Source of the DNA: an uncultured Acidobacteriota bacterium
GTDB taxonomy: Bacteria > Acidobacteriota > Terriglobia > UBA7540
NCBI GenBank assembly: GCA_963804995.1
Contig: CAWDSK010000005.1
Location: forward strand, 288,001-352,000
Length of the DNA stretch: 64,000 nt
Direction of reading: 5' to 3'
Part shown: piece after piece, positions 13,168-45,120 of the stretch
Numbering within the stretch: position 1 is the stretch's first letter
Layout: the number at the start of each line of letters is the position of its first letter
The notes under the pieces: model-generated
Seen by the model: the letters and a program-made list of their open reading frames with translations, nothing else
Database searches by the model: none
Told to the model about the DNA's origin: nothing
Program-made: the position numbers and the translations under genes

Positions 13168-13551
13168 ATGAGCGACGTGTCCACCACCGGAACCAAACGC
13201 GAACGCCGAGGGGCCCCACCTGAGCAAGGCTCAGATCCGAGGGCGCCACGCATCCGCATTGAAGTTCCGCTGGGTACACCGTTCCAGGAGATTCAAGAGT
13301 ACGTTTATCGCCAAGCCTGGCAACTGGCCGGAACGCAGCTCAAGGCCGCGGTTTCTCTGGGGATCACCCCCGAAACGATTTCGCGGTTTTTAAAACGTTG
13401 TGAACGAGACAGGCTTGACTACCCCGGCGCTCAGACGCGTTGGGGCAAAGGCTGCCCGAAGGGGGCGCCGCTCGAAGCGGCGCTTACCCCCGCCCCGGAG
13501 GGCAGCGAAGACTCGACCCTTGTTTCCCCTGGTAAGTGGGGAGGGGAATAA
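13168..13551 (+). CDS. Small Fis-type HTH protein
   Basis: YVYRQAWQLAGTQLKAAVSLGITPETISRFLK resembles a Fis/HTH_8 helix-turn-helix. Confidence 0.6.
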   Translation: MSDVSTTGTKRERRGAPPEQGSDPRAPRIRIEVPLGTPFQEIQEYVYRQAWQLAGTQLKAAVSLGITPETISRFLKRCERDRLDYPGAQTRWGKGCPKGAPLEAALTPAPEGSEDSTLVSPGKWGGE

Positions 13552-13633
13552 GAGTCAAGAAGCGGCGGCGATCAGCCGCCAGAATTTAACCTATTGCTCG
13601 TACGGGACGCTGTGCGAGTGAGGGCGGCGGTGG

Positions 13634-14374
13634 GTGCACACGCTGCCGCTGCCCAAAGTGACCAGGCAACAAATACAATTTCTTCTCCGGGTCGCACCCC
13701 CGGCCCTCCAAAGCGAGCGCGAGTACGAAATCCCGGCCTGCATCACCCTGGCGCAAGCGATTCTGGAAAGCGCCACACCCAGGTTCGGCTGGGGAAGTTC
13801 CCGCCTGTTCCGCCTGGCGAATAATCCGTTCGGGATCAAGTACAGCCACAGGCCGGGGGTCGAAAGTCAAAAGTTGAAAGTTGAAAGTGCGCTTGAAAGT
13901 TCGAATTTGAAAGTTCAAAGCCAGGGCGCGGTTGTCAGCGCGGTTTCAACTTTAAACTCTCAACCTTTAACCTCTTCCCTCAACTCTCAACTTTCAACTT
14001 CCGCCCCCGAAGACTACGGCCACTTCGATGTGGCGACCTGGGAATTCATCAACGGGCAAAAGAAAGAAGTTTTTGCACAGTTTCAGCGCTTCCCCGACCT
14101 GACCGAGGCCTTCAAGGCGCACGCGCGGTTGCTTCTTTCGCCGCACTACCGGCCGGCGTACGAGGTGCGTCACGACTGGAAACAGTTTGCGGAGCGGCTG
14201 GGTCCTAAAAAGTCGCAGCAGGACACCGACCATTGTGGGTATTCCACAAACCCCAGCTACTCCGCCTTGCTTATTAATTTGGTTAATACCTATCGTCTGG
14301 ACGACCCCCGCGCACAAGAGTGGCTGTCAACCGGAAAGGATCCCGGTCCGGTGCTGGAGCAACTGTTGGCGTGA
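13634..14374 (+). CDS. Endolysin, glucosaminidase (GH73/FlgJ-like)
   Basis: ITLAQAILES..GWG.S.L...ANNPFGIK, T.E, F..F and GYSTNPSY motifs; contains an in-frame hairpin insert. Confidence 0.85.
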   Translation: MHTLPLPKVTRQQIQFLLRVAPPALQSEREYEIPACITLAQAILESATPRFGWGSSRLFRLANNPFGIKYSHRPGVESQKLKVESALESSNLKVQSQGAVVSAVSTLNSQPLTSSLNSQLSTSAPEDYGHFDVATWEFINGQKKEVFAQFQRFPDLTEAFKAHARLLLSPHYRPAYEVRHDWKQFAERLGPKKSQQDTDHCGYSTNPSYSALLINLVNTYRLDDPRAQEWLSTGKDPGPVLEQLLA

Positions 14375-14537: not shown

Positions 14538-15089
14538 ATGAAGTTTCGCAATCTTATTCTTGCAACGGTTTTAGGTATGGTCACTCTCAGCCTGGCCTGC
14601 ACGCCTCCTTCCTGGGCCGTGGAGGCGGAGAACATCGCCAAAGTGGCGCTCCCCATCGTCGAAGGCATTGCCACGATTGTGGGCGCGGGGCCGGCCGTTA
14701 CCCAGGTTGCAAATGACATCAATCTGCTTATCACCTTGTTTGATAGATACCAGTCCACACCAAGCGCCGGCGCGCTGCAGCAGATTCAGGCGGGCCTTGC
14801 CACCGCGAACGCGGATATCCAGCAGATTCTAGCCGCGACGCACATCCAGAATACGGCTACGCAGAACAAAGTGACCGCGATTCTCCAGCTTGTCTTGAGC
14901 GAGTTTTCGAGTATTGCAAGTCTGGTGCCAGAGGCAGTAGGCAGTGGGCAAAAGGCAGTAGGCAGCAAGCCGGCCCCGGAACTTCCGTTCACCGCCTCGC
15001 AGTTCAAGGCCCAGTACAACCGCATCGTGAAGGCGAAGACCGGCGATGCGGAATGCGACAGAGTGTTTGCAGGCAAGGAACTGAAGTAA
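14538..15089 (+). CDS. Lipoprotein in the lysis module
   Basis: GGAGG RBS; signal peptide with lipobox SLAC. Confidence 0.65.
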   Translation: MKFRNLILATVLGMVTLSLACTPPSWAVEAENIAKVALPIVEGIATIVGAGPAVTQVANDINLLITLFDRYQSTPSAGALQQIQAGLATANADIQQILAATHIQNTATQNKVTAILQLVLSEFSSIASLVPEAVGSGQKAVGSKPAPELPFTASQFKAQYNRIVKAKTGDAECDRVFAGKELK

Positions 15090-15194
15090 TCGGCTCATCT
15101 TTTCATCGGCTCATCGGGCCATCTAAGAACAAAGCCCGTGAGCGGCCGATGAACCGATGAACCGATGGGTCGATGAACCGATAAGAGACTAACT

Positions 15195-16379
15195 ATGGCA
15201 GCCAACCACTCCACAATGCGACTCGGCAAGCGTCCCCGGCGCGACGACCCGCGCACGCTGAAACTGGCAAGGTATCTCCTGCCGGGCGCCTGGGCGGCGG
15301 CGATCGCTCCTCCCTCGAGCTGTGATTACACCCGCGGCATCAAGGGTTGGGGAATGATGCTCAACGACAAGCTCGGCTGCTGCACGATTGCCGCCGTCGG
15401 CCATGCCGTACAGATTTGGACCGCCAATGCCAGCAAGGAAATTACCGTTCCGGACTCTACCATCCTTAGTTATTACGAACGATGGGATGGCTACAATCCC
15501 CAGGATGCATCGACCGACCGGGGTGGCGTTGAGCTCGACGTGCTGAACGATTGGCGGCAGCAGGGATTTAGTGGGCATTCTCTTGATGCCTATGTTTCTG
15601 TCGGGTTAGGGAACAGGGAACAGGGAACAGGAAACAAAGGCCAGGGAACAGGGAATAGGGAACAGGGAACAGGAAACAAAGGCCAGGGAATAGGGAATAG
15701 GGAACAGGGAACAGGAAACAAAGGCCAGGGAACAGGGAATAGGGAACAGGGAACAGGAAACAAAGGCCAGGGAATAGGGAATAGGGAACAGGGAACAGGA
15801 AACAAAGGCCAGGGAACAGGGAATAGGGAACAGGGAACAGGAAACAAAGGCCAGGGAATAGGGAACAAAGGCCAGGGAATAGGGAACAGGGAACAGGGAA
15901 TAGAGGCGGAAGTACAGAACCCAACCCCCAGCACCCAGGGCCCCGTCCCTAGCCCCCAGCCCCCAACCGCCAACTCCGATATTGCTTTGGCCATCTGGCT
16001 TTTTGGCGGGGCTTACATCGGCGTGCAATTGCCCATCACGGCCCAGAACCAGAATGTCTGGGACGTGCCGCAAAATCCCGGACCGAATGACGAGCCCGGC
16101 TCGTGGGGCGGGCACGCGATCTATCTGGTGGGGTATGACACACGGGATACGGGTAGTGTTTTTCCTAACCCCCAGTCCCCAGCCCCCAGCACCCAGTCCC
16201 CAACTTTCACTTGCATCACCTGGGGCAAATTGAAACGCCTGACCTGGGCCTGGCTGGAGAAGTATTGCGACGAAGCCTATGCACTGGTTTCGAAGGATTG
16301 GATCAAGGCGAACGGAATCGCGCCTTCGGGATTCGATTTCGCCACGCTGGAAGCGGACCTGAAGTTAGTCACTGCGTAG
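15195..16379 (+). CDS. Papain-like (C1-type) cysteine peptidase with repeat inserts
   Basis: NDKLGCCTIAA, GGHAIYLVGYD and ITWG motifs. Confidence 0.65.
   Translation: MAANHSTMRLGKRPRRDDPRTLKLARYLLPGAWAAAIAPPSSCDYTRGIKGWGMMLNDKLGCCTIAAVGHAVQIWTANASKEITVPDSTILSYYERWDGYNPQDASTDRGGVELDVLNDWRQQGFSGHSLDAYVSVGLGNREQGTGNKGQGTGNREQGTGNKGQGIGNREQGTGNKGQGTGNREQGTGNKGQGIGNREQGTGNKGQGTGNREQGTGNKGQGIGNKGQGIGNREQGIEAEVQNPTPSTQGPVPSPQPPTANSDIALAIWLFGGAYIGVQLPITAQNQNVWDVPQNPGPNDEPGSWGGHAIYLVGYDTRDTGSVFPNPQSPAPSTQSPTFTCITWGKLKRLTWAWLEKYCDEAYALVSKDWIKANGIAPSGFDFATLEADLKLVTA
15609..15902 (+). repeat. Coding tandem repeat, 42-bp unit built from GGGAA(C/T)A-type heptamers
   Basis: About 6-7 copies encoding GNREQGTGNKGQG(T/I). 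Confidence 0.95.
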
Positions 16380-16486
16380 GAGCTTCACCACCAAGGCACA
16401 AAGGCACCAAGAAATGCCTTGGGTTTCTAACTCATTCAGCTTGGTGTCTTGGTGCCTTGGTGGTTTGACTTTTTCTCGGAGAATTT

Positions 16487-16834
16487 ATGGACCCGCAATC
16501 ATTGCAAGTACAAGCCCTGATCACTTTTCTAACTCCGCTCTTGATTCAGCTCGCCAAGCGCAGCCGGTCACGGGCGCTGGCTTGGATCGATCAGAGCAAA
16601 CCGAATATTTGTATTTTGACCAGCGCTGTGACGGCCCTTTTGACCTGTACGGAGATTGAGGTCATTCACGCTCCTCACAGCCTGACGATTACCTGGCCGG
16701 ACGAGGCCACGCTGGTGCGGGGGATTCTGACTTTCCTGGTGGCGGCGGCAGTGCAATTTGGCGGCCAGCATGTCTTTTACGATTCCTTCTGGCGGCATGT
16801 GGTGCCGACGGAGAAGTTAGAAGCGAGGAGCTAG
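16487..16834 (+). CDS. Holin-like small membrane protein
   Basis: 115 aa with about 3 hydrophobic segments, located in the lysis block. Confidence 0.5.
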   Translation: MDPQSLQVQALITFLTPLLIQLAKRSRSRALAWIDQSKPNICILTSAVTALLTCTEIEVIHAPHSLTITWPDEATLVRGILTFLVAAAVQFGGQHVFYDSFWRHVVPTEKLEARS

Positions 16835-17056
16835 GAGTTAGAAACGAGAAGTGAGAAGTCAGGAGTGTGTAGTGAGGAGTTAGAAGTTAGAAGTGAGGAG
16901 TTAGGAGTGAGGAGTCAGGAGTGAGTAGTTTTGAGCGAGGAGTGAGGAGTGAGAAGTAAGGAGTAAGCAGTGAGAAGCGAGAGGCGAGAATGAAAGTGTC
17001 TTCTAACTCCTAGCTCCTAACTTCTAACTCCTAGCTTCTCGCTCCTAACTCCTAGC
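16813..17056. repeat. Heptamer-repeat hairpin (GGAGTGA/GAAGTTA versus CTCCTAG/CTTCTAA)
   Basis: Long degenerate 7-mer array followed by a reverse-complement array. Confidence 0.9.
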
Positions 17057-17070
17057 CTTTGGAAACTTCC

Positions 17071-17424
17071 ATGATTTCTGCAGCGGAAATTCAAGCGATG
17101 TTGATCGGCGCCGGGGGGTTTGTGGGCACCAGCGTGGCGGGAATAGGAGCCTTTCGATTTTTCTCCCGCGCCTCGCATGGGGTCCTCACGATTCCCTCCA
17201 GCCTGGAGAGGGGCGCCGAGGCGCTGGAGCGATCGGTAAAAGTCGCCGAGACGCACAACGCCCTCAGCACGACGGTCATGGAGCTGAAGGGCATGCTGAC
17301 CGCGACGCGCGAGGATATCCAGAAAGTGATGCTAGAACGCCAGGAGATCGGCCGTGAACTTCGAATCATGTCACGAAAGATTGAGGGTTTTTCCTGCTAT
17401 GCCGAAGACCAAGAGCAAAGTTGA
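17071..17424 (+). CDS. Membrane-anchored coiled-coil phage protein
   Basis: N-terminal TM segment plus coiled coil; position just before the Mu gp26/27/28-like genes. Confidence 0.55.
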   Translation: MISAAEIQAMLIGAGGFVGTSVAGIGAFRFFSRASHGVLTIPSSLERGAEALERSVKVAETHNALSTTVMELKGMLTATREDIQKVMLERQEIGRELRIMSRKIEGFSCYAEDQEQS

Positions 17425-17704
17425 ATTCGAACTCAACCGCACTGAGATTCTCCGCTACCTGAATGAATGCGGCTTTCAGCCCGTGACCCCGCGGAGCATC
17501 TTGATTTACTTGGACGATAGCCTCCGCCCCGTTTCCGACCAGGCCGTGGAGTTTCAATTGCGCTACATGCGCGATCGGAACTGGGTGGAGCTGGGCAGTG
17601 AGAAACGTATCGGCCGCCCGGAAGTCATCCGTTGGGCGCGCATCACCGCCGACGGCGTCGATGAATATGACCGGCGGGCCGCGGCGCTGGGAGAGGTCAG
17701 ATGA
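17399..17704 (+). CDS. Winged-helix protein, Mu gp26-like
   Basis: R.EILRYL...V..QLRYM....WVE...ARITADGVD pattern; synteny. Confidence 0.55.
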   Translation: MPKTKSKVEFELNRTEILRYLNECGFQPVTPRSILIYLDDSLRPVSDQAVEFQLRYMRDRNWVELGSEKRIGRPEVIRWARITADGVDEYDRRAAALGEVR

Positions 17705-17823
17705 TCGGCTCATCGGTTCATCTTTCCATCGGCTCATCGAATCATTAGCTCTTAGATGACCCGATGACCCGATGGCCCGATGACCCGATAGTCCGATGAC
17801 CCGATTCGGAAAGATTTCAAATT

Positions 17824-18108
17824 ATGACCAGACCGACCCATATCGAAGCACTTGACCGGCGCCTTCCGGGTCTTGCGGACGCGGTGAAAGCCTGGTTCAA
17901 CCAGGGTGTACCCGTGCGCCAGGTCGTGGAGCTGATCCGCCGGCAGTATCACATCGCGGTGCCTCGGTCGACGCTCGGCAACTTTCGGGCCCGGCGCTGG
18001 GCGCGCGATCGCGAGCTTAGGCTGGAGAAGGAACCCGAGGCCAGGGCCACTGCCGATGGGGCCGATGAGTCTATCCGGCAGGCCGCGGCGCCCGAAGCGA
18101 TTCGATGA
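17824..18108 (+). CDS. DUF3486 / Mu gp27 (small terminase)-like HTH, short paralog 1
   Basis: IEALDRRLPGL...VPRSTLGNFR...W. Confidence 0.55.
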   Translation: MTRPTHIEALDRRLPGLADAVKAWFNQGVPVRQVVELIRRQYHIAVPRSTLGNFRARRWARDRELRLEKEPEARATADGADESIRQAAAPEAIR

Positions 18109-18458: not shown

Positions 18459-19049
18459 GTGCCCAAAGATCAGGCATGCAAACTGCAAATCCTGAGCGTC
18501 AAACACCCGGGCCTCCTGCAGGTTGTGGACACGATGTTCGAGAAGTTTGCGACTGTCGCGCAAGTCCAGCGGATGATCGAGCAAAAGTATCACGAAGACG
18601 TCGGCACGACCGCCGTCAGGAGCTACAAGCAAAAACATTGGCAGGTTCACAAGGATCAGATCTGCGAGCTGAAAACGGCCATGAAAGCCGTCTCGGAGCT
18701 GGTCGGCGAAGACGGCCTAACTGCCGGTGTGAACGCCTTGCTCTGGGAAGGCCTGCAGGAGATGACGGTGCCGCAATTGATGGCCTTTAAGAAAGTCTTG
18801 AACGACGGCGAGAAGGTCAGGCTGATGAAAAAGCACTTCGCCCTCTACGCTCAGGAGCACCGCCAGAAGATGCGGGAACGCACCAGCATGCAAGCGGGCA
18901 AGGGGAACATCGAGGTCGTCGAGGATTTCGACGCGGCCCGGCGAATGGTGGAACAAGCAAAGGAAATTTTCGGGATCGGGACAACGGTCATCGTCCCGCC
19001 CGTGCCGAAGCTGGAGGCGGTCGCCGCCGCCGGCGACGTGAACGCGTAA
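18459..19049 (+). CDS. DUF3486 / Mu gp27-like small terminase, full length
   Basis: KLQILSVKHPGL...VGTTAVRSYK...W, then a coiled coil ending in KEIFGI; lies upstream of TerL. Confidence 0.6.
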   Translation: MPKDQACKLQILSVKHPGLLQVVDTMFEKFATVAQVQRMIEQKYHEDVGTTAVRSYKQKHWQVHKDQICELKTAMKAVSELVGEDGLTAGVNALLWEGLQEMTVPQLMAFKKVLNDGEKVRLMKKHFALYAQEHRQKMRERTSMQAGKGNIEVVEDFDAARRMVEQAKEIFGIGTTVIVPPVPKLEAVAAAGDVNA

Positions 19050-19127
19050 GAAATTCGGAATGATGAATACGAAATGATAAAGGCGAATCCTGAGAAATGC
19101 GCACTTCATCACGACCGTCAGGTCGGT

Positions 19128-19480
19128 TCCCCGCAGGGGATAAATTTAATAGCCGGGGGCAACGCCCCCGGTGGGCGGAAATCCTCATCTTTGCTGACCC
19201 TGAAGGGGTCACATTGGAATCGAGGGGCAGGGAACGAACTCGACACGGATTATCGACCCCTTCAGGGTCGGCTCGTGGCTCGTTGCGTTTCCGGGGGCGT
19301 TGCCCCCGGCTATTATCTTGCGCCCTTGCAGGGCTCAGGAACGAGCACGGACCTCTTTTCTAGGTCCGCGGCCCTTCGGCAGGGTCGATAAGAAAAGCCG
19401 CAGACCCTGAAAGACAAGCGCTACGCCGATGGAGCGTCCCGATTTATCGGGACGGCGGCGGTCGCAGACCGCCGCTACAG
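19128..19480. repeat. Stack of REP/MITE-like palindromic elements
   Basis: About 205-bp nested inverted repeat (taatagccgggggcaacgcccccgg...gaccctgaaggggtc / gaccccttcagggtc...ccgggggcgttgcccccggctatta), then cggacct..aggtccg (also at 5097) and gcggcggtcgcagaccgccgctac. Confidence 0.75.
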
Positions 19481-19504
19481 ACGAAAGAGCAAGGCAAAAG
19501 GTAA

Positions 19505-21100
19505 ATGGCAAAACGGAAAGGTTCCAATTCGCCGATCACCCGATCTCCGATTTCGGGAGTCCGATGGACTCCCTCGGAGTCCGCAGATCGGACACCCGAT
19601 CTCCGATTTCAGGAGTCCGATGGGCTCCCTCGGAGTCCGCAGATCGGACACCCGATCACCGGATCGCCCGACGCGGTGCCTGAGACCCCAATGGACCGGC
19701 TTCGGACTCTGGCGAAGAAATCGATCCCCGTTCTCCCTTACCAGGACCGCTGGATTATGGACGACTCGCAATTGAAGATCGCGGTTTGGAGCCGGCAGAG
19801 CGGCAAGAGTTTTGCCGCCGCGCTGCGGGCCGTGCTCAAGTGCCTGGGCTCCCGCACCCAATACATCATTCTCTCCAAGGGCGAGCGCCAGTCGCGGCTG
19901 TTTATGGAAAAGGTCAAAGACTTCTGCGTGTTCTTCAAGAGACTGAAGGCATTGCCGGCCTTTGCTGAGTTGGACTCGGACGAGAAAACCATGGAGGTCT
20001 ATTTCCCGCACAACCGCTCGCGCATCATCGGCCTGCCGGCCAATCCGGACACGGCGCGCGGCTACAGCGGAAACATCGTGCTCGACGAGTTTGCCTTCCA
20101 CGGCGACGCCCGCAAAATCTATGCTGCCTGCTTTCCTATTATCACGCGCGGGTATTCGATTGAAGTTATTTCCACGCCTAATGGCACGGCGGGGAAGTTT
20201 TATGAGATTGCGAAGGCGGCCGGATTGACGGGCGGGCAGTGGGCAGGTGGGCAGGTAGGCAGTTGAGATATTTCCCATCTGCCCATCTCCCCATCTGCCC
20301 ATCTGCCTAATCTTTGGTCCGGCCACCGAGTGGACATCCACGAAGCGGTCGCGCAGGGCCTGCCCGCCAACATCAATCTGCTCCGTTCCGGCTGCGACGA
20401 CGAAGAGACCTGGCTCCAGGAATACTGCTGCCAATTCCTTTCCGACGCCGCGAACTACATTCCGATTGAGCTGATTCTGACCTGCGTGCATGAAGCGGCC
20501 ACGACGGACCTGAGCGCGGTGGACCTGGCGGGGCTCGAGGGCAAGGAACTTTACCTGGGGATCGATATCGGGCGGAAGCGCGACCTCACCATCGCCTGGC
20601 TCTTTGAAAGGCGCGACGGGGTGCTGTGGTCGCGGGTCCTCCTGGCTCTGAAGGACATGACCTTTGACGCGCAGGAAAAACTCCTCTTCAGCCTTATGGA
20701 TTTGGGAGTGCGGCGCGCGGGGATTGACGCTTCCGGCCTCGGCATGATGCTGGCGGAACACGCCGTCGAAAAGTACGGCGCAGTGGTGGAGCCCACCACT
20801 TTCACCATGCAATTGAAGGAACGCCTGGCGCCGATGGTGAAACAGGCTTTCGAGGATCGCACCGTGCGGATTCCGGATTCGCGGGAGGTGCGCGCCGACA
20901 TCAACTCCGTCAAGCGCTTCGTAACGCCCTCCGGAAACGTGCGCTTTGATGCTGAGCATACCGACCGGGGACACGCCGACCGCTTCTGGGCGCTGGCGCA
21001 GGTCATCAGCACCGCCACCCAGCCGGTGGCGCACTTTGAAGAAGCCGCCTCCCTGGTGGGCGCGCCGGTGACGGCGGGAATAATGGATGCGATCTTGTAG
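19505..21100 (+). CDS. Terminase large subunit, Mu gp28-like; interrupted by an in-frame TGA at 20264
   Basis: LPYQ..W, Walker A SRQSGKS, Walker B VLDEFAF, STPNG, LGIDIGRKRDLT and GHADRFWA. ORFs 19505-20266 and 20330-21100 are in the same frame. Confidence 0.9.
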
Positions 21101-21306
21101 CGCCGCCGTCCCGGCGGCACAGGCCACAGGCCGGCAAGATGCCGGCGTTACGGTGGGCGCTCCGGTGACGGCGGGGCTGATGGAGCAGATTTTGTAATCG
21201 GGCCATTCACGGATCGGGTCATCGGATCATCGGGCCATCTGACAACAACGATGAACCGATCAATCGAGGGTTTGATGAACCGATGGACCGATGGAAAGAT
21301 GAACCG

Positions 21307-23080
21307 ATGATTAAGGCTCACAGCTCGGGAAACGGTCACCAGATGAAGCATTTAATCCGCGAGGGCAAATCGGTCTCCAAAGCGCTGCAGGCGCAAATCG
21401 ATACGGCCGTAGCGCTGGCGGATAAGGAACTGGGCATTGGGCAGATAGGCAGTAGGCAGATGGAAATGTTATCCACTGCCCAACTGCCTGCGGTTGGCCG
21501 TCAACCGCTTCTCACCCCCGCTCCGCTGACTACCACGGGCGGTTTGCCGGTCGCGTCCACGCGGGCCATTCCACCTCCGCCTCCGCCGGAGCCCATCTCC
21601 GTGGCGGATTACACGGAACGAATCCGGCAGGGCTGGGTTCCGGTCATGGGCGTCCCCGGCACTCCCATCACGGCGGGCTTCCTGCGCGAACTGGGTGAAT
21701 ACAATCCCAAGCTCGAAGGGCTGAACGGAATCTGGACTTATCAGGAAATGCGGCGCGGCGACGGCCAGGTGGCCGGTACCTTGCGCGCGTGCAAGATGCC
21801 GATTCTTTCCGCGCAGTGGCAGGTGAAGCCGCCCCCCGATCAGGAATTGCGCAAAGGCCAGACGGCGGAGAAGGCCAAAGAGGTCGCCCACTTTGTTCGC
21901 GAGAATTTCTTCGGCGGCCTGGAATGGCAGACCCACACGGGAAGCTGGGTGACGCAGAACTGGAAAGACGTGGTGCGTTTCGCGCTGCGCATGCAGGACT
22001 TTGGCGCGGCGTGTTACGAAGAAGTGATGGCCGTGGACGGCGATCAGATCCGCGTGCGCCGCTTGTGCGACCGCCAAGCGCTGACGTTTTACCGCTGGCA
22101 CACGGACCCGCATTCCGTCGATCCCACTCTGCCGCCTTTTATCTACGACGATGGCGAAACGCTTTACGGGCTCGAACAGTGGGGCTACCGCGGCAATCGC
22201 TTCGAGTATGTGATGCTGCCCACCGACAAGGCCTGCATCTTTACGCATGACCAGGAGGGGGCGAATTTCTGGGGTATCCCGCTGACCCGCGCCATGTACC
22301 CGCACTGGTACATGAAGAAACATCTGGAGCGGATCGACGCCATCGCCTGCGAACGTAACTCGCTGGGCGTGCCGATGATCCTGCTGCCGCCTAATCCCTC
22401 GAAGCAAGACGTTCTCGACCGCCCAGAATTGGGTGACCCAATTGGCCGCGCATGAAAAGACCGGGCTCGCACTGCCCAACGGCGCGGAGTTCAAGTTGGT
22501 CGGCATCGAGGGACGGATTCGCGAGATATTACCTTCGCTCGAATATCACAAACAGCAAATCGCCACTTCCTGCCTGGCCATGTTCATGGAACTCGGCCAG
22601 ACACGGACGGGCTCACGCTCCCTGGGCGAATCGCAAACCGACTTCTTCCTGCTGGCCACGCAGAATACTGCGGACCATATTGCGCACCAGATCCGCAACT
22701 CAACGATTCGCCGATTGACCCAGTGGAATTTCGGACCGGACGCGCCCGTGCCCTACCTCATTCCCGCCAACGTGCAGGCCCGGTCGATCGAGACCATGTC
22801 GGGCATCATTGCCCAGCTTGCCCAGGCCGGCGCGTGGATCTCCGATCGCTCCAGCGTGAATCAGGTGCGGCACGAGCTCGGGTTTGCGGACTTCACGGAT
22901 GATGACGTTGTCTCCATCCGCGGCGAGACCATTGCCACAGCCGGGGGTGAGATCAGCGGCAAGGGCGGAGAGGCGATCAGCATCGGCTCCCCGAATGGCC
23001 GTGCCTTTGAGCCAGCGAAGAAACAGAACGAGGGTGAATACGGCGAGGGGGCGGGCGGCGCGGACGATGACGAAGCGTAA
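21307..23080 (+). CDS. Portal protein, Mu gp29/DUF935-like; +1 frameshift near 22415
   Basis: YQEM...DGQVAG.L..CK.PIL, NFWGIPLTRAMY..WYMK, ERNSLGVP; continues in the next frame with LALPNG, GSRSLGE. Start is uncertain. Confidence 0.85.
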
Positions 23081-23245: not shown

Positions 23246-23764
23246 ATGACAACCTTACGGAATTCCTTGGTTCTTTCTTTCTCGATCGCGGTCCTGATCG
23301 TGCTGATGGCGCTTCCGACCTGGCGCCCGCCGCAGGTGAGGGCTGATTCCTACAGCTCGCATCGCTTCCCGGCGTTCGGGTACATTCTGGACAATCCCAT
23401 CCTGACAATTGCCGGGGCGACCACGACGACCAGCCCCACATCTACCACCGGCTCGACGACGGCGCACCTGACCTGGGTCTTCGGGACGGTATCCGGCACC
23501 TACACGACTTGCACGGTGCAGGCAAGAACCAGCTTCGACGGTGTCACTTGGCTGAATCTCGGGAGCGCGGCTTCGGTAACCGTCACCAGCAATGCCGTCA
23601 ACGCCTGGGATATCTATCAACAGGCGCCCGTAACTACCGGCGTGACCACCACTACGGTCAGTAACTCCGCGGCGGCGGGATTCGGCCAGTTGAGCGAGTA
23701 CACCTTCGCCTGCTCCGCCTACGGAACCAGCGCGCCGGTCACGATCACGGCGATCTATAAGTGA
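23246..23764 (+). CDS. Thr/Ser-rich beta protein with signal peptide (possible head decoration)
   Basis: GGAGAGG RBS; hydrophobic N-terminus ending VRA-D; TVQARTSFDGVTW. Confidence 0.65.
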   Translation: MTTLRNSLVLSFSIAVLIVLMALPTWRPPQVRADSYSSHRFPAFGYILDNPILTIAGATTTTSPTSTTGSTTAHLTWVFGTVSGTYTTCTVQARTSFDGVTWLNLGSAASVTVTSNAVNAWDIYQQAPVTTGVTTTTVSNSAAAGFGQLSEYTFACSAYGTSAPVTITAIYK

Positions 23765-23845
23765 AGCCGACAGTTGACAGCGCACTGTTCATCGTCGGCT
23801 GTTAGCTGAGAGCGGTAAGCCCAATAAAAACGATAAGGAGCACAC

Positions 23846-24856
23846 ATGACAAAGTTCAAGGCAAGTCTGCTGATAACACTTCTGTTTACGGTCTTGGGTT
23901 CATTGCCTTCCAGCCTTTTTGGCCAAGGATCGGCTGGGCCAGTCTTGGGCGGCACCAACTACTCAAGCCTCGAGGGGAGTTTTGGCATCCCTAGCGTTTC
24001 CTGGGCTGCGACAGGCCTGACGCTCAACTACACAGCCGGCACCGTCTATCAGAAAGGCGCCGCAAACTCCATTAACTTAGGAAGCCTAACCTTAACGACG
24101 AACATGACCTCCTGTTCTCTCGCGGGGATCCTGGCGGGCTCCTGCAACCTGGTGTACTGGTCAGGATCGGGCAGCGCGCTCGCCTCCACCACGTCCTATC
24201 CGACCGCCGCCGCGAGCGGCAGCACGATTCTCTATTTCTGTACGGCGAACGTCAGCGGCAACATCACCGGCTGCGTCGTCGCAACGGAAGACGTGCTGGG
24301 TGCGATCCCGGCCACTTACAACGATGGCCTGCTCATGGTGCCAGTCACCAATTGCAGCTTTACCCCGGTCACCACAGCATTTACGGGTACACCGGGGCTG
24401 GTGCGATTGGTGGCAAATCAGACCACCTGGAGCGGCACAACCAACACCACGGCCGGAACGATTTACATGAGCTGCGATTTGGGCCTCGAAGGTCGCGTCA
24501 CTCCCGGTTTGGGATTTGTGGTCAAGGATATCGCCGTTCAGTACGGCGTCCAAGGCGTGGCCTTGTCTTCCATTACCACGCCCACGCTCAAGACCAATAC
24601 CTTCCCGGCCTACGGCGGCTCGGCCGGCGACACCCTGGCCGCGGTCGGTGGCACGATTACCAGCAACCCCGGCGTGCTGCAACTGGCCACAACGACTTCG
24701 GGCAACTTCTATAACGCAGACTTTATTTGCGGGACCCCATTCACCCTGACGGATCAAACCAAGGTGAATTTCGAAGTGGCCCTCAACACCCCGGGCACGA
24801 CCGGCCTGACTTTGCAGGTCAGCGGACTGCTAGTGCATGGGAACTGGATTCAGTAG
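23846..24856 (+). CDS. Beta-rich protein with signal peptide (possible head fibre or decoration)
   Basis: AAGGAG RBS; MTKFKASLLITLLFTVLG...LFG-Q. Confidence 0.65.
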   Translation: MTKFKASLLITLLFTVLGSLPSSLFGQGSAGPVLGGTNYSSLEGSFGIPSVSWAATGLTLNYTAGTVYQKGAANSINLGSLTLTTNMTSCSLAGILAGSCNLVYWSGSGSALASTTSYPTAAASGSTILYFCTANVSGNITGCVVATEDVLGAIPATYNDGLLMVPVTNCSFTPVTTAFTGTPGLVRLVANQTTWSGTTNTTAGTIYMSCDLGLEGRVTPGLGFVVKDIAVQYGVQGVALSSITTPTLKTNTFPAYGGSAGDTLAAVGGTITSNPGVLQLATTTSGNFYNADFICGTPFTLTDQTKVNFEVALNTPGTTGLTLQVSGLLVHGNWIQ

Positions 24857-24947
24857 ATCGGTAGGGCGTGGATGGCAGGTCGCATACAGGGGGAAACCCC
24901 AGCTACTACCTGCCACGCACCACACAACCTTTTTGGAGAGCGCTACG

Positions 24948-31894: not shown

Positions 31895-32046
31895 AGAAAG
31901 CCATCAGCTCTCAGCCGTGAGCGATCAGCTCGTACCCCTCAGCCCCAGCCATCTCCTCCGGGGAGAGGGTGGCTGACGAAGGAGACTGGTGAAGAGTTTC
32001 GAAAGCTGATAGCTGAAAGCTGGGAGCTTGGAGCTGCGAGTTAAAA

Positions 32047-32877: not shown

Positions 32878-32962
32878 ATTGACGATTGAATGATTGACAT
32901 TGGGGCGATTGAAACCGGCCACCGTTAATCTTCAATCGAGAATTGTCAATCGGCAATCAACA

Positions 32963-33346
32963 ATGGCTAACCCAGCAATCGTCTATCCCGTCTCCGGTGG
33001 TACAGCGACGCTCAATTTTCTGCGCCCGCCACGCCACGTACCGGCTTACTCACAAGCGGCCCTCCGTCACGACAATGTCGCCTCGAGCGGCGTGCGCGAA
33101 TCGATATTGGAACGCATCGACAATTATCTCGACCTCGATCTGGAGTGGGTCGGCCTGGGCGCCGACGCGCAGGCGTGGGCGCAGTTCATGGCCTATGCAC
33201 TTCAAGGCGGAGCCTTTGCCTATTATCCAGATAGTTCACAACTGGCCTTCACGAATTACTGGCTGGAAGACACCAACTGGACGGCGGCCTATAAGGCGCC
33301 GGGACAGTATACGTTTCACCTGAAGTTTCGACAGGTAATCACATGA
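32963..33346 (+). CDS. Distal tail (Dit)-like protein
   Basis: 127 aa after the TMP; GGAFAYYPD...Y...LKFRQV. Confidence 0.55.
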   Translation: MANPAIVYPVSGGTATLNFLRPPRHVPAYSQAALRHDNVASSGVRESILERIDNYLDLDLEWVGLGADAQAWAQFMAYALQGGAFAYYPDSSQLAFTNYWLEDTNWTAAYKAPGQYTFHLKFRQVIT

Positions 33347-39011: not shown

Positions 39012-39509
39012 ATGTCCCAAATGTTGATGTCCGGAATTCCGGGTTTCTTTGATCTGGCTGACAGCACGATCGCTGGAGGCCAGCCGCTAACCGACTACGC
39101 GCTTGCCAAGATCAGCCACAACGCGAAATTTGGCGCCGTGCGCTGCGAGATCATCTCGATGGGCTTCTACGGACCCGGCGATACTGTGCAACCACCGGTT
39201 TCTCCGGTGGACGGCTATGATTACAGCTATCAGGAATGCCTTTTCATTCCCATTCATTTTTCCTCGCGCTCCCCAGCGGCAGGTTACGTGCCGGGGCAGG
39301 CCTCGCCGCCAGGACTCGCCAACAACGACCCGGGGCAGGGCAATCTCATCGTCTGTCCGTACCAACTTGATGTGAACGATGCGAATGGAAAGGTTTTGAT
39401 GCAGACCTACTGGTCGACGAGCGGGGCGGAAAACCAGGGAACCGTGAAAGTCATGGCCATTTGCCAGAGGCTAAGCGTGAATCTACCCGCGGGAGTGTCA
39501 GGTGATTAA
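39012..39509 (+). CDS. Tail tip-associated protein
   Basis: GAGG RBS; co-oriented ORF of 165 aa. Confidence 0.6.
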   Translation: MSQMLMSGIPGFFDLADSTIAGGQPLTDYALAKISHNAKFGAVRCEIISMGFYGPGDTVQPPVSPVDGYDYSYQECLFIPIHFSSRSPAAGYVPGQASPPGLANNDPGQGNLIVCPYQLDVNDANGKVLMQTYWSTSGAENQGTVKVMAICQRLSVNLPAGVSGD

Positions 39510-39607
39510 TTTCTCAGTTTACTCCGCTCGCGAGGAGCGGGGCTGGCTCATCGCTTCATTAATTGACTTCGGACTCCGGACCCGGACTCCGGACTCGGGG
39601 TGTCGCT

Positions 39608-40264
39608 ATGGCAATAACACGCACTGTGCTGCCTCGCAAAGGTCTTGTCCAGCCGCAGCACGGGATCACTCAATACGAGTCGGATATGGACGCGAACATG
39701 GCGGTGATCGATGCCAATGTCGCCTTCATGAGCGACCTGTCATCTGTCGTTGACACCTTGGTCGGTGACCTAGGATTGAACGGTCTGGTCACAGGCTTTC
39801 AGCTAACTACTTCCAACACGCTTAATCCCGGCCTGACCAACGGCGTCCTCTATGCGAACGGCTCGCGCTACGCGCCCTCTGAAGCTAGTGCAGGTTTGGC
39901 ACCTGCGAGCGCGACCTCCTATCTGTTCTACCAGGAGGAGAGCTGGCCCAACAGCTACTATTATCGACCGGTTCTAGCCTCCCTTAATCCCGGGGACGCC
40001 TTCATTGGTATCGTGGTTACAAACACTACCCAAGTCGTGAGTGTGACAACGGCGTCGAGCCTTTTCAGCCAAATCCCCGTGTCGGCCGCGGCCCCCGGCA
40101 ATTTCAGCGTGCCACACTTGCTGGGACGTACTCCCGTCGGAGCGCACATACGCATGACGAGCCCTGGTGCAATCTGGTGGCAGTCGCCAGTGGACACGGA
40201 CGGCGTAAACCTCTATCTGGTCGCTTCGGATGCCGGGGTGACCGCGAAGGTGCAGGTATGGTGA
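39608..40264 (+). CDS. Fibre adaptor / short fibre protein
   Basis: MDANMAVIDA coiled coil, beta domain, and C-terminal VPHLLGRTP...DGVNLYL. Confidence 0.6.
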   Translation: MAITRTVLPRKGLVQPQHGITQYESDMDANMAVIDANVAFMSDLSSVVDTLVGDLGLNGLVTGFQLTTSNTLNPGLTNGVLYANGSRYAPSEASAGLAPASATSYLFYQEESWPNSYYYRPVLASLNPGDAFIGIVVTNTTQVVSVTTASSLFSQIPVSAAAPGNFSVPHLLGRTPVGAHIRMTSPGAIWWQSPVDTDGVNLYLVASDAGVTAKVQVW

Positions 40265-43200
40265 AAAAACAGCAATCAGCAGTCAGCCGTCAGTGTTCAG
40301 TGAAAAAGTATCTGAACATCCTGGGCTTTATCCTATCTGTTACGTTTGGGATACCGTCTGTTGCTCTTCCGCAGCAGCCGCAGACGCAGACTGATCCGAT
40401 CTATGCCGTTAATGCCAAGTACGTGCAAGGGGTCGGGCCCGGGTACTGGCCGACGGCCGGATCAAATCTCACGTTGAACCTCACATCCGGGACGGCCGTC
40501 TGTGGCAACACAGTTCAGACGTATGCCGGTGGCACGCTCACCTTGGCGGCCAATGCCACGAATTACGTGTATCTCAACACTGCGCAGAGCTGCATTCCTG
40601 CCTCCAACACGACCGGCTTCAATTCCACGACGATCCCCATCGCTATAGTCGGGACCAACACCAACTCCATCACCTCGATCACGGACGTCAGAACCATGTT
40701 CGTTTCAGGCGCTACCGGGACCCTCACCAGTGTCGCAATGACGGGCGACGGGGTGATTTACAACACGGCGGTTCCGGGCTCGCCGATCACTACGAGTGGA
40801 ACGCTCGCGCCTCAGCTTCTATCCCAGACTGCCAACACCCTGCTGGCCGGACCAGGCTCGGGGGTTGCCGCTCTGCCGACTTTCCGCACTTTGGTGTCTG
40901 CCGACCTGCCCACCATCGCCATCTCCGGAGGTGGCACCGGCCAGACCACTGCAGCGGCTGCGTTCAATGCCCTTTCGCCCCTTACCACGGAAGGTGACCT
41001 AAACTATTACCACACCGGCGCAAACATCCGCTTGGGTATAGGCGGTAGCGGCCAATGTCTGACCTCCAATGGCACGGATCCTGCTTGGGGTTCATGCGGT
41101 GGCGGGGGGGCTTGGAGCGCGATCGGCAATCCCACTGCCAATCTCACTCTCTCGATGTCCACTTACACAACGACATACAACCACACGTCGGCAGCGAACT
41201 GGACCTGGGCGAACACGACCGCAGCAACTTCCGGCACAGCTCAGTCCAGCCCCATTTTCAATCTTTCTGGCACCTATTGGACAGGTGCTGCCTCCGGCGC
41301 GGATAGCTGGTCGCTTCAAGACCTCATAGCCAGCGGCACCAACGGAAACTCGATACTGACTTTAGCCCATGCTGGGTCGACCACCGGGATAGTTTCAGTC
41401 AGTGTTCCAAACCTGATCAATACGAGCACCACCCAATATGGGGTGGAGTACGGCGGTGGAGCGTCGGCCGTCATCAGATCGACAGCGGCAGGAGGTAGTG
41501 GAGTTCCTTTGCTGGGCCAGGGGGCAAGTGCGGCTCCGATTTTCGGTGCCCTGAATCTTGCGGGCGGCTCATCTATCGTTACCGGAACTCTTCCCTTTGG
41601 GTATGGCGGGACAAACTCCACTTCGTTTACGCAGTATGGCGTAGTGGTGGCCGGTGCGAGTTCCTTGAGCACAGTCGGCCCAAACGCCTCAAGCGGATTG
41701 CCGTTGCTTTCACAGGGTGCCTCTGCGAACCCGGCCTTTGCTGTGTTGGGTATCGTCGGCGGTGGCACCGGCCAAACCACTGCCACCGCTGGCTTCAACG
41801 CCTTGTCCCCTCTCACTACTGAGGGTGACCTGCTTTACTACCATACTTCAGCGAACGCCCGCCTGGCCCGGGGCACGAATGGCCAATGTTTGACTTCGAA
41901 CGGTACGGATCCTGTTTGGGGCTCCTGTAGCACTGGAAGCGGAACCGTAACCAGCGTGGCTCTCGCGATGCCTTCGATCTTCTCCGTCTCCGGTTCACCG
42001 GTGATAAACTCCGGCACGCTGACGGCGAGCTTGACGAGTCAGACTCAAAACCTGGTTTTTGCGAGCCCGAGTGGAAGTTCGGGCAACCCGAGCTTTCGAT
42101 CCCTCGTAGGAGCTGACCTGCCCGCTCCGACATCATCCACCTTAGGCGGAGTCAAATCCCTCACTTGTTCGGCCAGCCAGTTTGTTAATCAGATTTCCAC
42201 CGCAGGCGCACCAGTATGCGCTACCCCCAGCGGTGGTGGTTCGGGCCTGGGCAACGGGGGAACCGTCATCGACGCCAGCTTGCAAGCAGGGTCAGACTTT
42301 GGAGCTAAGGTCAACGCAGCCCTTGCCCTATTGCCAGCGACGGGAGGGGTAGTGGACGCACGGGGTCTGGTGGGAACTCAATCATCCTCTTCAAGTATCA
42401 CCATTCCGCGAGCGGTCACTGTGCTTCTAGCCTGCGGGCTAAACGTAACCTTCACTGTGGCCCCTATGTTCACAGTTTATGGCAATCTGGTTGGGTGTGG
42501 CGGCCATATGGCTGGCCCGCAGACTTCGCTCAGCTTGAGCGGAACCACCGGAGGCAGCGCGATCGTTGGGGGAAGTGTGACCGGTGTCGCCATCTACGGG
42601 GTCTCAACTTCTGACGGGTCAATTGGCTTTGACTGGAGCAGCGGACCCTCAACCTCACAGTTGACAAATAGCTCAGCCTCAAACTTTCAGTATGACTACA
42701 AGATTGGTGGCGGAGGTTCGGAGTCATCCTACAATCACTTGGAAGATGACGCTGCCTACGGGGCTGGAACATATGGGTTTTGGGTCACGGGGAACGCGGC
42801 TTTCAATGAACTTGAACATCTGAATTGCGCGGGCCTGCAAACCTGCTACGAGTTTGATGCGCAGGTAGGTACGGCGGTCAACCTGAGTGCGGAGAGCTTC
42901 ACTGTCGATGCGTTTGCCTTCAATAATTCTGGGAGTCAAGTTTTTGGGGCCTACATCGAAAACGGTCCAGTGCCCGTCCATTACAAGGGGGGCTATAACA
43001 ATATTGTTATGGGTGGCACTGCCAGAATCGTCGGGTCGGGAGTAGTCTACGACGCAGGCGTAGACCAAATATCCAATTACCTCCAGGGCGTGGATTTCGG
43101 TGGAGGTCCGGCATACATGGGCTACTGGGCCATGACTTACCCTCTCTTTAACTTCCCCGCCCTGAATGACCCATTCACGACTGAATTGGACCCTAGCGTG

Positions 43201-45120
43201 TCTTGGGGCGGTACTTGGCAGGCACTCCAGTATAGCCCGAAGGGAAGTCACGGCCCCACGCAGGGCTACTCGGGTTATGCGCCCATCGGTCTAGGCGGCA
43301 TCGAGAATCGCGGCGGCATTACCACTTGGGGCAGCCTTGTGGTTAATGGCCTTCCCAGCGGATCAAACATTCCAGCGCCCACCATGGCGTGCACGGGAAG
43401 CGGTACAGGAACCACGTATACGGCGTCTCTGGTAATTAGCGACTGGAACGGCAATAAGACAACGCCCAGCACTGCCGCCACAATCAAGTGTCCCAATCCG
43501 CCATCTGGGACGTACCCGATTACTGTCACCCCCGTAACATCTTGGTATGGTAGTCCGGCAAATGGCGTCAAGTCCTACGACTACCTTTGGGGCGACACCG
43601 CGCACAGCTTCGCGCTTGCAACCCTTGGGACTCAGAGTTACACAGGTGGAAGCCTTGGTGCCTACACCGCAGCCGCGCGCAACGCAACGGGGGATGGCTA
43701 CGTTAACGGGTGGCTTGGGGTGGGCACCTCCACGCCAGGACGAGCCTTGGAGTTAAGTTTCAATGCCATCTCCTTGGGAGATCAGGGATTTAGGTTATCC
43801 TACAGCCCCTCCCCGACTAGTTATTACGGTGAGATGGTCCAACACTATAACGGCTCCGGAAACGGGTTTAACTACAACTTCAACCTGCATGATGCCGATA
43901 CCGCATACTCGGGAACTCCATTTTCGATCTCTTCGCACGGCCAGGTTGGAATTGGAACGGCCAACCCCGGACAACAGCTTGATGTTGCGGGCGGTTACGT
44001 CCGCTCCGACACGGGTTTTTGCATCACGTCGAACTGTGTGACCTCGCTGTGGTCAAATCCCATGACCACCCTGGGTGACATTGTTTACGCTGGTGCGGGC
44101 GGAGCCGGCACGCGGCTGGCGGGCAACACTTCCGCAACGACGTATTTCCTCGGTCAGACCGGGACTGGCAGCGCCTCCGCAGCCCCCATATGGTTGCAGC
44201 TCAACTTTGGGAACATCTCGGGCACTGTCCAGCCCGGGCAGCTTTTGACACCCGTGAACGCGCAGGCGGGCACGAGCTACACAATTGCCATAAGTGACCA
44301 GAACAATCTCGTCACCTTCAACAACAGTTCCAGTGTTGCCCTAACCCTGCCACAGCCTGGAGGCTCCTTTCCGGCGGGTTTCGCGATCGAGATTGAAAAT
44401 CTTGGAGCGGGTGTCGTGACTGTGACACCGACTGCGAGTACCTTGAATGGGCAAACCAGCCTGACCTTTGTGCAGAATCAGGGCGCTACGCTCGTCAGCG
44501 ACGGCACAAATTGGAAGGCCAACCTCGGGTACGGAATTCAAGGGGCAACGAACTTGCTTACCCAGTACGCCGTTCCCTTTGTGACCTCCCAGGGCACGAT
44601 CAATCAGATCAGCAACAACACCACCACTACCCCCATGTATCTAAAGATGACCGGCACTGGTGTAACAGGACAGCTTCCCGCCTGGGGAACACTTACTACT
44701 GGAGATTTGCCGTCGCACTTGGCCACCCTCTTGACTCTGTGGTGCTACAGCGCCTTGAGCGCAACCTCCGGGACATACTATTTCGGTGGCTTCGGGGGGG
44801 TGCAGACAGCTTGTAATTCGCTTACTACCACCCTGACGGGCGGGATGCCGGTTGGCGTGGGCGGCACAATCAAGAACCTCCGTTGCGCCGCGGGAGCAGC
44901 AGGGCACGCTGCGGGAAGCGGAGTAATCAAAATCTACGACGGCGGATCCGCCAAAAGCCCCACCTGCACGATCGGTACAGGGACAACGTGTAGTGACACA
45001 TCTAATTCCTTCACCTATGCTGCTGGTGATCTGATTCAATTCTCTGTGGCGAGTGGGGGCGCCGGCGAAACTTTGGCCAACGTCTCCTGTTCGGCTGAAG
45101 TTTGGGTCAGTGCTAACTGA
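40258..45120 (+). CDS. Tail fibre / adhesin with signal-peptide-like N-terminus
   Basis: Gly/Thr/Ser-rich; GGTG fibre repeats; beta-helix-like centre; VGIGT..P...LDV motifs. Confidence 0.8.
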   Translation: MVKKQQSAVSRQCSVKKYLNILGFILSVTFGIPSVALPQQPQTQTDPIYAVNAKYVQGVGPGYWPTAGSNLTLNLTSGTAVCGNTVQTYAGGTLTLAANATNYVYLNTAQSCIPASNTTGFNSTTIPIAIVGTNTNSITSITDVRTMFVSGATGTLTSVAMTGDGVIYNTAVPGSPITTSGTLAPQLLSQTANTLLAGPGSGVAALPTFRTLVSADLPTIAISGGGTGQTTAAAAFNALSPLTTEGDLNYYHTGANIRLGIGGSGQCLTSNGTDPAWGSCGGGGAWSAIGNPTANLTLSMSTYTTTYNHTSAANWTWANTTAATSGTAQSSPIFNLSGTYWTGAASGADSWSLQDLIASGTNGNSILTLAHAGSTTGIVSVSVPNLINTSTTQYGVEYGGGASAVIRSTAAGGSGVPLLGQGASAAPIFGALNLAGGSSIVTGTLPFGYGGTNSTSFTQYGVVVAGASSLSTVGPNASSGLPLLSQGASANPAFAVLGIVGGGTGQTTATAGFNALSPLTTEGDLLYYHTSANARLARGTNGQCLTSNGTDPVWGSCSTGSGTVTSVALAMPSIFSVSGSPVINSGTLTASLTSQTQNLVFASPSGSSGNPSFRSLVGADLPAPTSSTLGGVKSLTCSASQFVNQISTAGAPVCATPSGGGSGLGNGGTVIDASLQAGSDFGAKVNAALALLPATGGVVDARGLVGTQSSSSSITIPRAVTVLLACGLNVTFTVAPMFTVYGNLVGCGGHMAGPQTSLSLSGTTGGSAIVGGSVTGVAIYGVSTSDGSIGFDWSSGPSTSQLTNSSASNFQYDYKIGGGGSESSYNHLEDDAAYGAGTYGFWVTGNAAFNELEHLNCAGLQTCYEFDAQVGTAVNLSAESFTVDAFAFNNSGSQVFGAYIENGPVPVHYKGGYNNIVMGGTARIVGSGVVYDAGVDQISNYLQGVDFGGGPAYMGYWAMTYPLFNFPALNDPFTTELDPSVSWGGTWQALQYSPKGSHGPTQGYSGYAPIGLGGIENRGGITTWGSLVVNGLPSGSNIPAPTMACTGSGTGTTYTASLVISDWNGNKTTPSTAATIKCPNPPSGTYPITVTPVTSWYGSPANGVKSYDYLWGDTAHSFALATLGTQSYTGGSLGAYTAAARNATGDGYVNGWLGVGTSTPGRALELSFNAISLGDQGFRLSYSPSPTSYYGEMVQHYNGSGNGFNYNFNLHDADTAYSGTPFSISSHGQVGIGTANPGQQLDVAGGYVRSDTGFCITSNCVTSLWSNPMTTLGDIVYAGAGGAGTRLAGNTSATTYFLGQTGTGSASAAPIWLQLNFGNISGTVQPGQLLTPVNAQAGTSYTIAISDQNNLVTFNNSSSVALTLPQPGGSFPAGFAIEIENLGAGVVTVTPTASTLNGQTSLTFVQNQGATLVSDGTNWKANLGYGIQGATNLLTQYAVPFVTSQGTINQISNNTTTTPMYLKMTGTGVTGQLPAWGTLTTGDLPSHLATLLTLWCYSALSATSGTYYFGGFGGVQTACNSLTTTLTGGMPVGVGGTIKNLRCAAGAAGHAAGSGVIKIYDGGSAKSPTCTIGTGTTCSDTSNSFTYAAGDLIQFSVASGGAGETLANVSCSAEVWVSAN

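Follow-up and report, generated by a model that had tools for sequence, protein, structure and literature searches.

A vertically inherited cluster of phage late genes in Acidobacteriota is a probable domesticated particle locus of new origin

The window analyzed here is a 64,000-nucleotide (nt) stretch (positions 288,001-352,000 of contig CAWDSK010000005.1, assembly GCA_963804995.1) from an uncultured peat/soil bacterium of the phylum Acidobacteriota, class Terriglobia, whose genome (G000) is 92% complete. An unbroken run of co-oriented open reading frames (ORFs), referred to below as the cluster, occupies positions 13168-45120 of its plus strand and contains lysis, packaging, head and tail genes. 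It is most probably a domesticated particle locus of new origin. A reading made earlier from the sequence alone (the sequence-only reading) had described such a run, adjoined by nitrilase and DUF1015 genes, and this was confirmed when the 40 ORFs of the cluster were scanned with Pfam and PHROGs (Table 1). NCBIfam was also run on the cluster proteins and matched no family beyond the endolysin. Cluster coordinates are window positions throughout; the genomes of relatives are designated G0xx and individual loci L0xx. The relatives that carry the cluster are uncultured metagenome-assembled genomes from the same class. Among public sequencing runs, a search listed two DNA runs with a small share (0.05-0.06) of the sequence words, and no RNA run.

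The first gene of the cluster, o127, matched no Pfam or NCBIfam family, and its orthologues in relatives (39-72% identity) occupy the same position; it is a candidate late activator. The endolysin gene is interrupted by an in-frame hairpin insert (13862-13999), around which the PF01832 profile match is split. The order of the six ORFs that follow is kept in relatives, and one of them, o94, weakly matches phrog_3929, annotated ‘transcriptional repressor’ (E=8e-5). The next gene is a candidate small terminase gene, whose G026 orthologue matches PF11985 at 2.5e-5 and 25.2 bits, under the 28-bit cut-off. It exists in two divergent forms, as the identity of its orthologues to the window's protein is bimodal (24-36% or 49-83%). 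The inverted repeat between the small and large terminase genes is not present in relatives; an ORF that spans it (19074-19391) has no orthologue and was rejected as a gene. In G026 an ORF of 1541 amino acids (aa) lies at the slot of o172 and o336. The sequence-only reading had given the head genes Mu-type labels: those for the portal, the I-type protease and the terminase held, the gp27 label has the weak match just described, and the gp26- and gp36-like labels were not confirmed.

The four ORFs downstream of the capsid gene, which by position and conservation are candidate head-tail connectors, matched no family in Pfam, PHROGs or NCBIfam. The ORF that follows them is a lead for the tail tube: its AlphaFold model is weak (pLDDT 57), and the best Foldseek rows are tail tubes and Hcp, none with E<=0.001. 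The helical, 276-aa product of o276 is likewise a lead for a short tape-measure protein, the nearest named Atlas clusters being tape-measure proteins (score 0.91-0.92). For the C-terminal 494 aa of the predicted hub, the nearest named Atlas clusters (Phage-tail_3) have PF13550 in 15-33% of their members. The short tail had been predicted to lack a sheath, which agrees with the scan: no sheath family was matched in the cluster, and the interval from the capsid gene to the tube candidate holds no ORF longer than 190 aa. A tailocin would consist of tail genes without head or packaging genes, and the cluster does have genes for a capsid, a portal, a protease and a terminase, all of them under selection.

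Table 1. Features of the cluster and its surroundings; positions refer to the window unless a contig is named
Feature	Position	Strand	Basis or remark
Nitrilase, left flank	11252-12292		PF00795
Regulatory region	12700-13167	+	Four palindromes (TTTGGGCTACCGGTAGCCCAAA type) in two pairs, TTGACA promoter-like box after each pair
o127, small protein with a helix-turn-helix (HTH)-like segment, first cluster gene	13168-13551	+	HTH read by eye
Endolysin (glucosaminidase)	13634-14374	+	PF01832, 1.5e-20
Six small/medium ORFs: o183, phrog_19005 protein, o115, o121, phrog_436 protein, o94	14538-18108	+	
Candidate small terminase (Mu gp27-like)	18459-19049	+	Weak PF11985 match on G026 orthologue
Inverted repeat, 43-nt arms	19129-19335	+	Right arm matches Rfam Acido-Lenti-1 (RF01687), 41.6 bits vs gathering score 37
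TerL (T4-type large terminase), two pieces in one frame	19505-20266 + 20330-21100	+	PF03237, PF17289
Mu-type portal, two pieces	21283-22455 + 22433-23080	+	PF06074 on both
o172 (conserved) and o336 (accessory; found at 3 loci only)	23246-24856	+	
Mu I-type head protease/scaffold with in-frame repeat arrays	24837-26357	+	PF10123 5e-20, phrog_328
o167 (head-associated, 80-92% conserved) and major capsid	26532-28185	+	
Major capsid	27205-28185	+	phrog_1005, 6e-68
Four small conserved ORFs, candidate head-tail connectors	28273-30301	+	Position and conservation
Candidate tail tube, 262 aa, inserted immunoglobulin (Ig)-like domain	30398-31186	+	phrog_2175 Ig-domain match
o188 (chaperone candidate), o276 (tape-measure candidate), o150	31267-33346	+	
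Multidomain tail hub, gpJ-like, 1723 aa	33768-38939	+	phrog_10356 virion structural protein, 5e-24
o165, o233 and fibre-like protein of 1647 aa (last gene)	39012-45120	+	Far end variable between species
DUF1015, right flank	45329-46918	-	PF06245
Split host genes of G000	C5:438673-440938; C5:107431-108344; C1:484135-486250; C3:198573-200476		

Early phage genes were sought in the cluster, in its flanks and in relatives. No transposase, integrase or replication family was found among the 40 cluster ORFs with Pfam and PHROGs, and the MuA/MuB families (PF02316, PF09299, PF02914 and PF09077) had no match anywhere in the G000 genome. The MuA core (PF02914), which scored 173 bits in a true Mu-like record used as a positive control, was above the cut-off in none of 41 relatives; the single sub-threshold match was in G007, a genome without the cluster. 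Apart from the weak match of o94, the window contains no repressor or early region and no element ends, and its sole tRNA gene lies at 62361-62434. A scan of 90 ORFs upstream of the cluster, taken from 12 loci, produced no match to an integrase, transposase or replication family. In G005 the cluster adjoins M16 peptidase genes upstream and ordinary metabolic genes downstream. Neither integrase nor transposase was found upstream of the cluster in G036, G031 and G030, downstream of it in G036 and G031, or in the remainder of the G030 contig on the cluster side, which ends before the flank. The reported absence of early genes from the cluster was upheld for transposase, integrase and replication genes, and is qualified for a repressor by the o94 match and by HTH genes in two relatives. 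The absence expected of relatives was also found, with no MuA/MuB and no cluster-associated integrase in any that were examined. One integrase gene does lie 7 kb upstream of the cluster, in G026 (contig C7; L106:13256-17100). It was rejected as part of the cluster, as it is not present in the sister genome G015 and adjoins a filamentous-phage replication gene (Phage_CRI); the two genes are probably a separate insertion, an integrated inovirus-like element.

The closest comparisons for the packaging genes are transposable phages. The nearest isolates by TerL are phages of 33-39 kb that include Pseudomonas phage B3 (31-37% identity), and the TerL relatives in IMG/VR (25-36% identity, approximately 37 kb) carry MuA, MuB, GemA and DUF3164. 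Like these Mu-like transposable siphoviruses (B3, the phages of 35-39 kb, and the IMG/VR loci L080 and L085), the cluster has a homologous TerL (25-37%), PF06074 and PF10123, places its lysis genes upstream of packaging and keeps the same late gene order. It differs from them in having no element ends, in being fixed in host lineages, and in lacking all of the MuA, MuB, GemA, DUF3164 and repressor genes present in L080. The capsid is closest (30-31%) to those of other siphoviruses, such as Ralstonia phage YO107_2 and roseophage RDJL Phi 1. On this homology and gene order, the cluster appears to be derived from the late half of a Mu-like transposable siphovirus.

The capsid gene is present in 23 of 28 genomes of the same genus, in 22 of them at 90-95% identity, while G017 has only the second capsid lineage described below; it is also present in six of eight other genera of the family (39-47% identity). 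There is one cluster copy per genome. A syntenic cluster had been predicted to occur in related genomes, and it was found in five fully fetched relatives (G026, G005, G018, G008 and G020) and in 17 further loci taken from the TerL alignment (L051-L067), in all of which the genes run in the same order from o127 to the fibre gene. In three other genera (G036, G031 and G030) and at L068 a homologous cluster of the same order, at 30-63% identity, adjoins dtd, the gene for D-Tyr-tRNA deacylase. G036 and G031 also have a common downstream flank of ornithine cyclodeaminase, hydrolase and E1 dehydrogenase genes. G037, from another family, was rejected as a member: TerL and a 26-28% match to the capsid are all that it has in common with the cluster, and it carries a CI-like repressor.

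The rates of nonsynonymous (dN) and synonymous (dS) substitution were estimated for 15 cluster genes in 9-16 species each, with RpoB and GlgP as host references. Median dN/dS lies between 0.05 and 0.22 in the 15 genes (0.053 for the capsid), compared with 0.055 for RpoB and 0.072 for GlgP. Median dS is 0.69-1.19 for the cluster genes, compared with 0.91 and 1.20 for the two host genes. When 11 cluster genes were pooled and compared with RpoB over 78 pairs from 13 genomes, the pairwise values were correlated for dS (Spearman 0.84) and dN (0.78), with a Mantel p=2e-4 that is a guide only, since related pairs are non-independent. Maximum-likelihood trees of the cluster and the host agree on every strongly supported split, the other nodes being weak in both; the splits common to both are (G026,G062), (G067,G071) and {G000,G026,G062} versus the rest. 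The cluster is vertically inherited and is kept by purifying selection. Two predictions of the sequence-only reading, that divergence would track the host and that dN/dS would be below 1, agree with these results, and its view of the cluster as a long-resident, domesticated element is borne out by the synteny, the host-tracking divergence, the low dN/dS and the lack of early genes. That the cluster is domesticated and selected is considered highly probable.

The best explanation for these observations, with a likelihood put slightly above even, is that the cluster is the late half of a Mu-like transposable siphovirus that lost its transposition and early genes before the family diversified and has since been inherited with the host as a particle locus resembling a gene transfer agent (GTA), which selection on its genes suggests is functional. 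As terminase, portal and capsid are all under selection, the simplest reason for their retention would be DNA-filled particles, and it is probable that most species still make them. The transfer of host DNA as the selected function is a possibility held at somewhat less than even.

Several observations weigh against this explanation. The first of these concern the condition of the G000 copy. Its TerL gene contains an in-frame TGA (20264-20266) in the loop of a hairpin insert of in-frame 8-nt repeats, and alignment to five relatives places one extra base near 22416-22420 of the portal gene, which shifts the frame. If both lesions are real, the G000 copy is dead. TerL also falls into two frames in three relatives and the portal gene has a stop in one, as might be seen in an ordinary prophage remnant decaying since too short a time for its genes to be lost. 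Such a remnant is nonetheless very improbable: dS values of approximately 0.7-1.2 represent ample time, yet dN/dS has stayed at 0.05-0.22, TerL is a single open frame of 488-586 aa in 14 of 17 relatives, the portal gene keeps a single uninterrupted frame in 16 of 17, and the cluster has been kept into other genera. One of the relatives with a split TerL, G013, has a copy riddled with frameshifts; in G026 the portal, protease/scaffold and capsid genes are intact.

The quality of the G000 assembly also bears on the lesions. Of 76 distinct host orthologues compared with the ORFs of relatives, 62 are intact in this genome and 8 are partial, and a frame change divides the other 6. Since one of these, an ORF antisense to rpoB, should be discounted, the split genes number 5-6 of 76. 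The split host genes are SelB (window 49960-51952, a one-base insertion), UvrD and three others. Indel errors are therefore probably present in the G000 assembly, with roughly the frequency that would account for the portal frameshift; the TerL TGA stays unexplained by them. Neither the portal nor the SelB extra base is in a homopolymer, and the same is true of the TerL TGA site.

The remaining points against the explanation concern distribution, location and the left arm of the cluster. The capsid gene was not found in 5 of the 28 genomes of the genus, two of which are at least 92% complete. Within the genus the neighbors of the cluster differ between G000, G026 and the group of G005, G018 and G008. 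In G000 the site between dtd and the ornithine cyclodeaminase gene is empty, with just 1 kb separating the two genes (C5:148259-150681), and the cluster is 150 kb away. The cluster has therefore moved at least once, by rearrangement or another route, and this is the main observation that a simple GTA picture leaves unexplained. The two forms of the small terminase are distributed independently of the host tree, suggestive of recombination between lineages. On the left arm, small ORFs (X1-X3, one of them a zinc-ribbon ORF) occur in 9 of 13 compared flanks, and a gene with a Cro/CI-type HTH (HTH_3) occurs solely in G026 and G015; neither is present in G000 or G005. Finally, a head of Mu size (related Mu-like phages have genomes of 35-39 kb) could hold the whole 32-kb cluster, unlike the heads of classical GTAs.

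The mobility, the empty ancestral site, the variable left arm with its HTH_3 and zinc-ribbon genes and the behavior of the small terminase would all be accommodated by a temperate phage that is still autonomous and co-speciates with its hosts, its early genes being too divergent to detect or located in the variable left arm; the many ORFs without a family match allow for this. It is nevertheless improbable. The cluster is directly enclosed by host genes in G000 and G005, which leave no room for a transposase (approximately 650 aa) or an integrase, and the integrase near the G026 cluster is missing from the sister genome and lies next to a filamentous-phage replication gene. Moreover, cluster dS equals and tracks host dS, and each genome has a single copy.

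A different use of a domesticated particle locus was also considered, in which the particles do not transfer DNA and serve instead as a PBSX-like killer, in programmed lysis with DNA release, or as helper of a satellite. The evidence for domestication fits these uses equally well. The fibre and hub genes are the most variable between species, as would be expected of a targeting device. Selection on the terminase, portal and capsid genes is as strong as on the tail genes, which implies that head filling matters, and a pure killer would not need it. The helper variant would account for a second capsid lineage, borne by a multi-copy element in G013, G018, G017 and G009 that carries no other head genes; the absence of this element from G000 counts against that variant. 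Taken together, these non-transfer uses are regarded as unlikely, and the GTA-like particle locus remains the preferred explanation.

The second capsid lineage is 79-85% identical to that of the cluster (G013:C33/C34/C35, G018:C7/C20/C28, G017:C27 and G009:C62; L041-L050). Its capsid genes lie at contig ends in repeats of 2-5 kb that are 99.8-99.9% identical within a genome. Each repeat carries a scaffold-tail-like ORF, an HTH_17 ORF and a 568-aa ORF, and no terminase or portal gene. The element could be a satellite or a transposon that carries a capsid gene.

The region upstream of o127 contains the four palindrome copies at 12708-13109. An ORF that overlaps them (12839-13171) is probably not a gene, as its translation crosses the palindromes and has no homologue. 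The sequence-only reading had taken this operator/promoter block for the cluster's own; that view was not sustained, as the palindrome is host-wide and its 12-nt core occurs at 62 sites in the G000 genome. A paired variant (TTCCTACCGGTAGGAA, 42 bp apart) precedes the o127 orthologue in five relatives, and a single copy does so in a sixth. This variant keeps the CTACCGGTAG core and has 6-16 exact sites per genome in four relatives. Given an arrangement that is conserved ahead of the cluster and a motif that occurs throughout the host genome, the palindrome pairs may represent the wiring of the cluster into a host regulon. Control by the SOS response was rejected, as the palindrome is not beside lexA (C3:409828 and C6:1048754) or recA (C9:106117), its closest copies being at distances of 7.6 kb and 2.6 kb. 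Downstream of the TTTGGGCTACCGGTAGCCCAAA sites in G000 there is usually a TTGACA promoter-like box, together with a conserved leader. Many of these sites open multi-copy sequences of 0.6-3 kb without a recognisable protein family, and one precedes an IS4-type transposase gene.

A working model for the GTA-like locus can be put forward from these genes. A host-wide regulator acting on the CTACCGGTAG-core palindromes would control two promoters ahead of the small HTH protein, which in turn would switch on one long rightward operon. A subpopulation of cells would then assemble capsids, from the Mu-type portal, the protease/scaffold and the capsid protein, together with non-contractile tails. The terminase would fill the heads with DNA by the headful; chromosomal DNA is proposed as the cargo because the element cannot replicate or excise. 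The endolysin would free the particles, which would then carry host DNA from one relative to another in a GTA-like or lateral-transduction-like manner. A GTA function of the cluster is plausible. A stronger form of this proposal, a true GTA of independent origin or a lateral-transduction platform that is under a host-wide regulon, moves host DNA among peat and soil acidobacteria and is exploited by the capsid satellites, is put forward only tentatively.

Known GTAs come from a handful of lineages, each of independent origin. Like RcGTA of Rhodobacter, BaGTA, VSH-1, Dd1 and VTA, the cluster is restricted to structural and lysis genes without replication or integration genes, is vertically inherited as a single copy under purifying selection, and may be wired into host regulation. 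Its predicted tail, likewise non-contractile, would include a large hub of several domains and a short candidate tape-measure protein. It differs from them in its Mu-type head module, its Acidobacteriota host and its movement within the genus, and in that its 32 kb do not clearly exceed what the head could hold. None of the window proteins matched a Pfam family associated with RcGTA, and PF11351 (the ‘GTA holin’ family) occurs solely in the orthologous region of G031. The PBSX element of Bacillus and the vertically inherited defective prophages of enterobacteria are also conserved, defective in propagation and under purifying selection, and could package host DNA; the cluster differs from these in being kept in several genera of one family, with the host genes on either side shared, and in its transposable-phage origin.

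Acidobacteriota rank with the most abundant phyla of soil and also with the least tractable. If the proposal is correct, a Mu-derived GTA in this phylum would make the capture of phage late genes a general route to host-controlled DNA exchange, and would provide a mechanism of gene flow in organisms without genetic tools. Even without proof of transfer, the cluster is a clean case for dating and dissecting the domestication of a prophage, being family-wide, with flanks common across genera and host-like dS. The excerpts of published work available to us describe no GTA-like element from Acidobacteria/Acidobacteriota or of Mu-like origin, and neither do those from the broader domestication literature; the part seen of one report (PMC5900883) describes prophages in Acidobacteria and no GTA.

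The sequence-only reading had also described the cluster as saturated with repeat hairpins that mostly preserve the reading frame. The density and the frame-keeping were confirmed, whereas their attribution to the element was not, as the repeats are a class of the host lineage that is found genome-wide. Within the cluster there are 42 merged arrays of 7- or 8-nt units, of which 25 are intergenic, 15 lie inside eight ORFs and 2 are at annotated starts; TerL is the sole cluster ORF with a stop inside an array. The G000 genome has 1316 arrays, and among its 760 bins of 10 kb (mean 1.7 arrays) the two that hold the cluster come first and joint second, with 18 and 12 arrays. Elsewhere the arrays peak in ordinary operons, suf and hydrogenase among them. 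In G026, G005, G018 and G008 there are 10-18 arrays per 10 kb in the cluster versus 0.8-3.5 in the flanks. In the other genera, 26 of 26 arrays are inside the cluster in G031 and 73 of 74 in G030; G036 has none. The inserts in TerL occupy the same positions in six species, with different sequences and the frame kept. In-frame hairpins of fixed position and changing sequence, in the terminase and portal genes, provide a natural test of the role of this repeat class.

The nearest described repeats are the heptamer simple-sequence repeats of Xanthomonas and Nostoc (Rehm et al. 2015, PMC4692102). As far as the available part of that paper describes them, they resemble the arrays here in being 7-nt tandem arrays, mostly between co-oriented genes and near stop codons, with variable unit number and genome-wide spread. 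Compared with that description, the cluster arrays differ in being paired as inverted arms, in also lying in frame within genes, in their species-specific sequence, and in being 4- to 20-fold denser in the cluster than in its flanks.

Three further observations concern the repeats and the left flank. A 294-nt AGGGAAC array of approximately 42 units (15607-15900) lies within the reading frame of the phrog_19005 protein. Elsewhere in G000, two genes for a ‘23S rRNA intervening sequence protein’ (PF05635; L159:4228-4789 on C3 and L162:3233-3818 on C1) have heptamer arrays on both sides. Beside the cluster, an ORF at 9862-10608 fuses a 40-residue FAD-binding N-terminus to a RidA/L-PSP domain, and is possibly a fusion left by a deletion.

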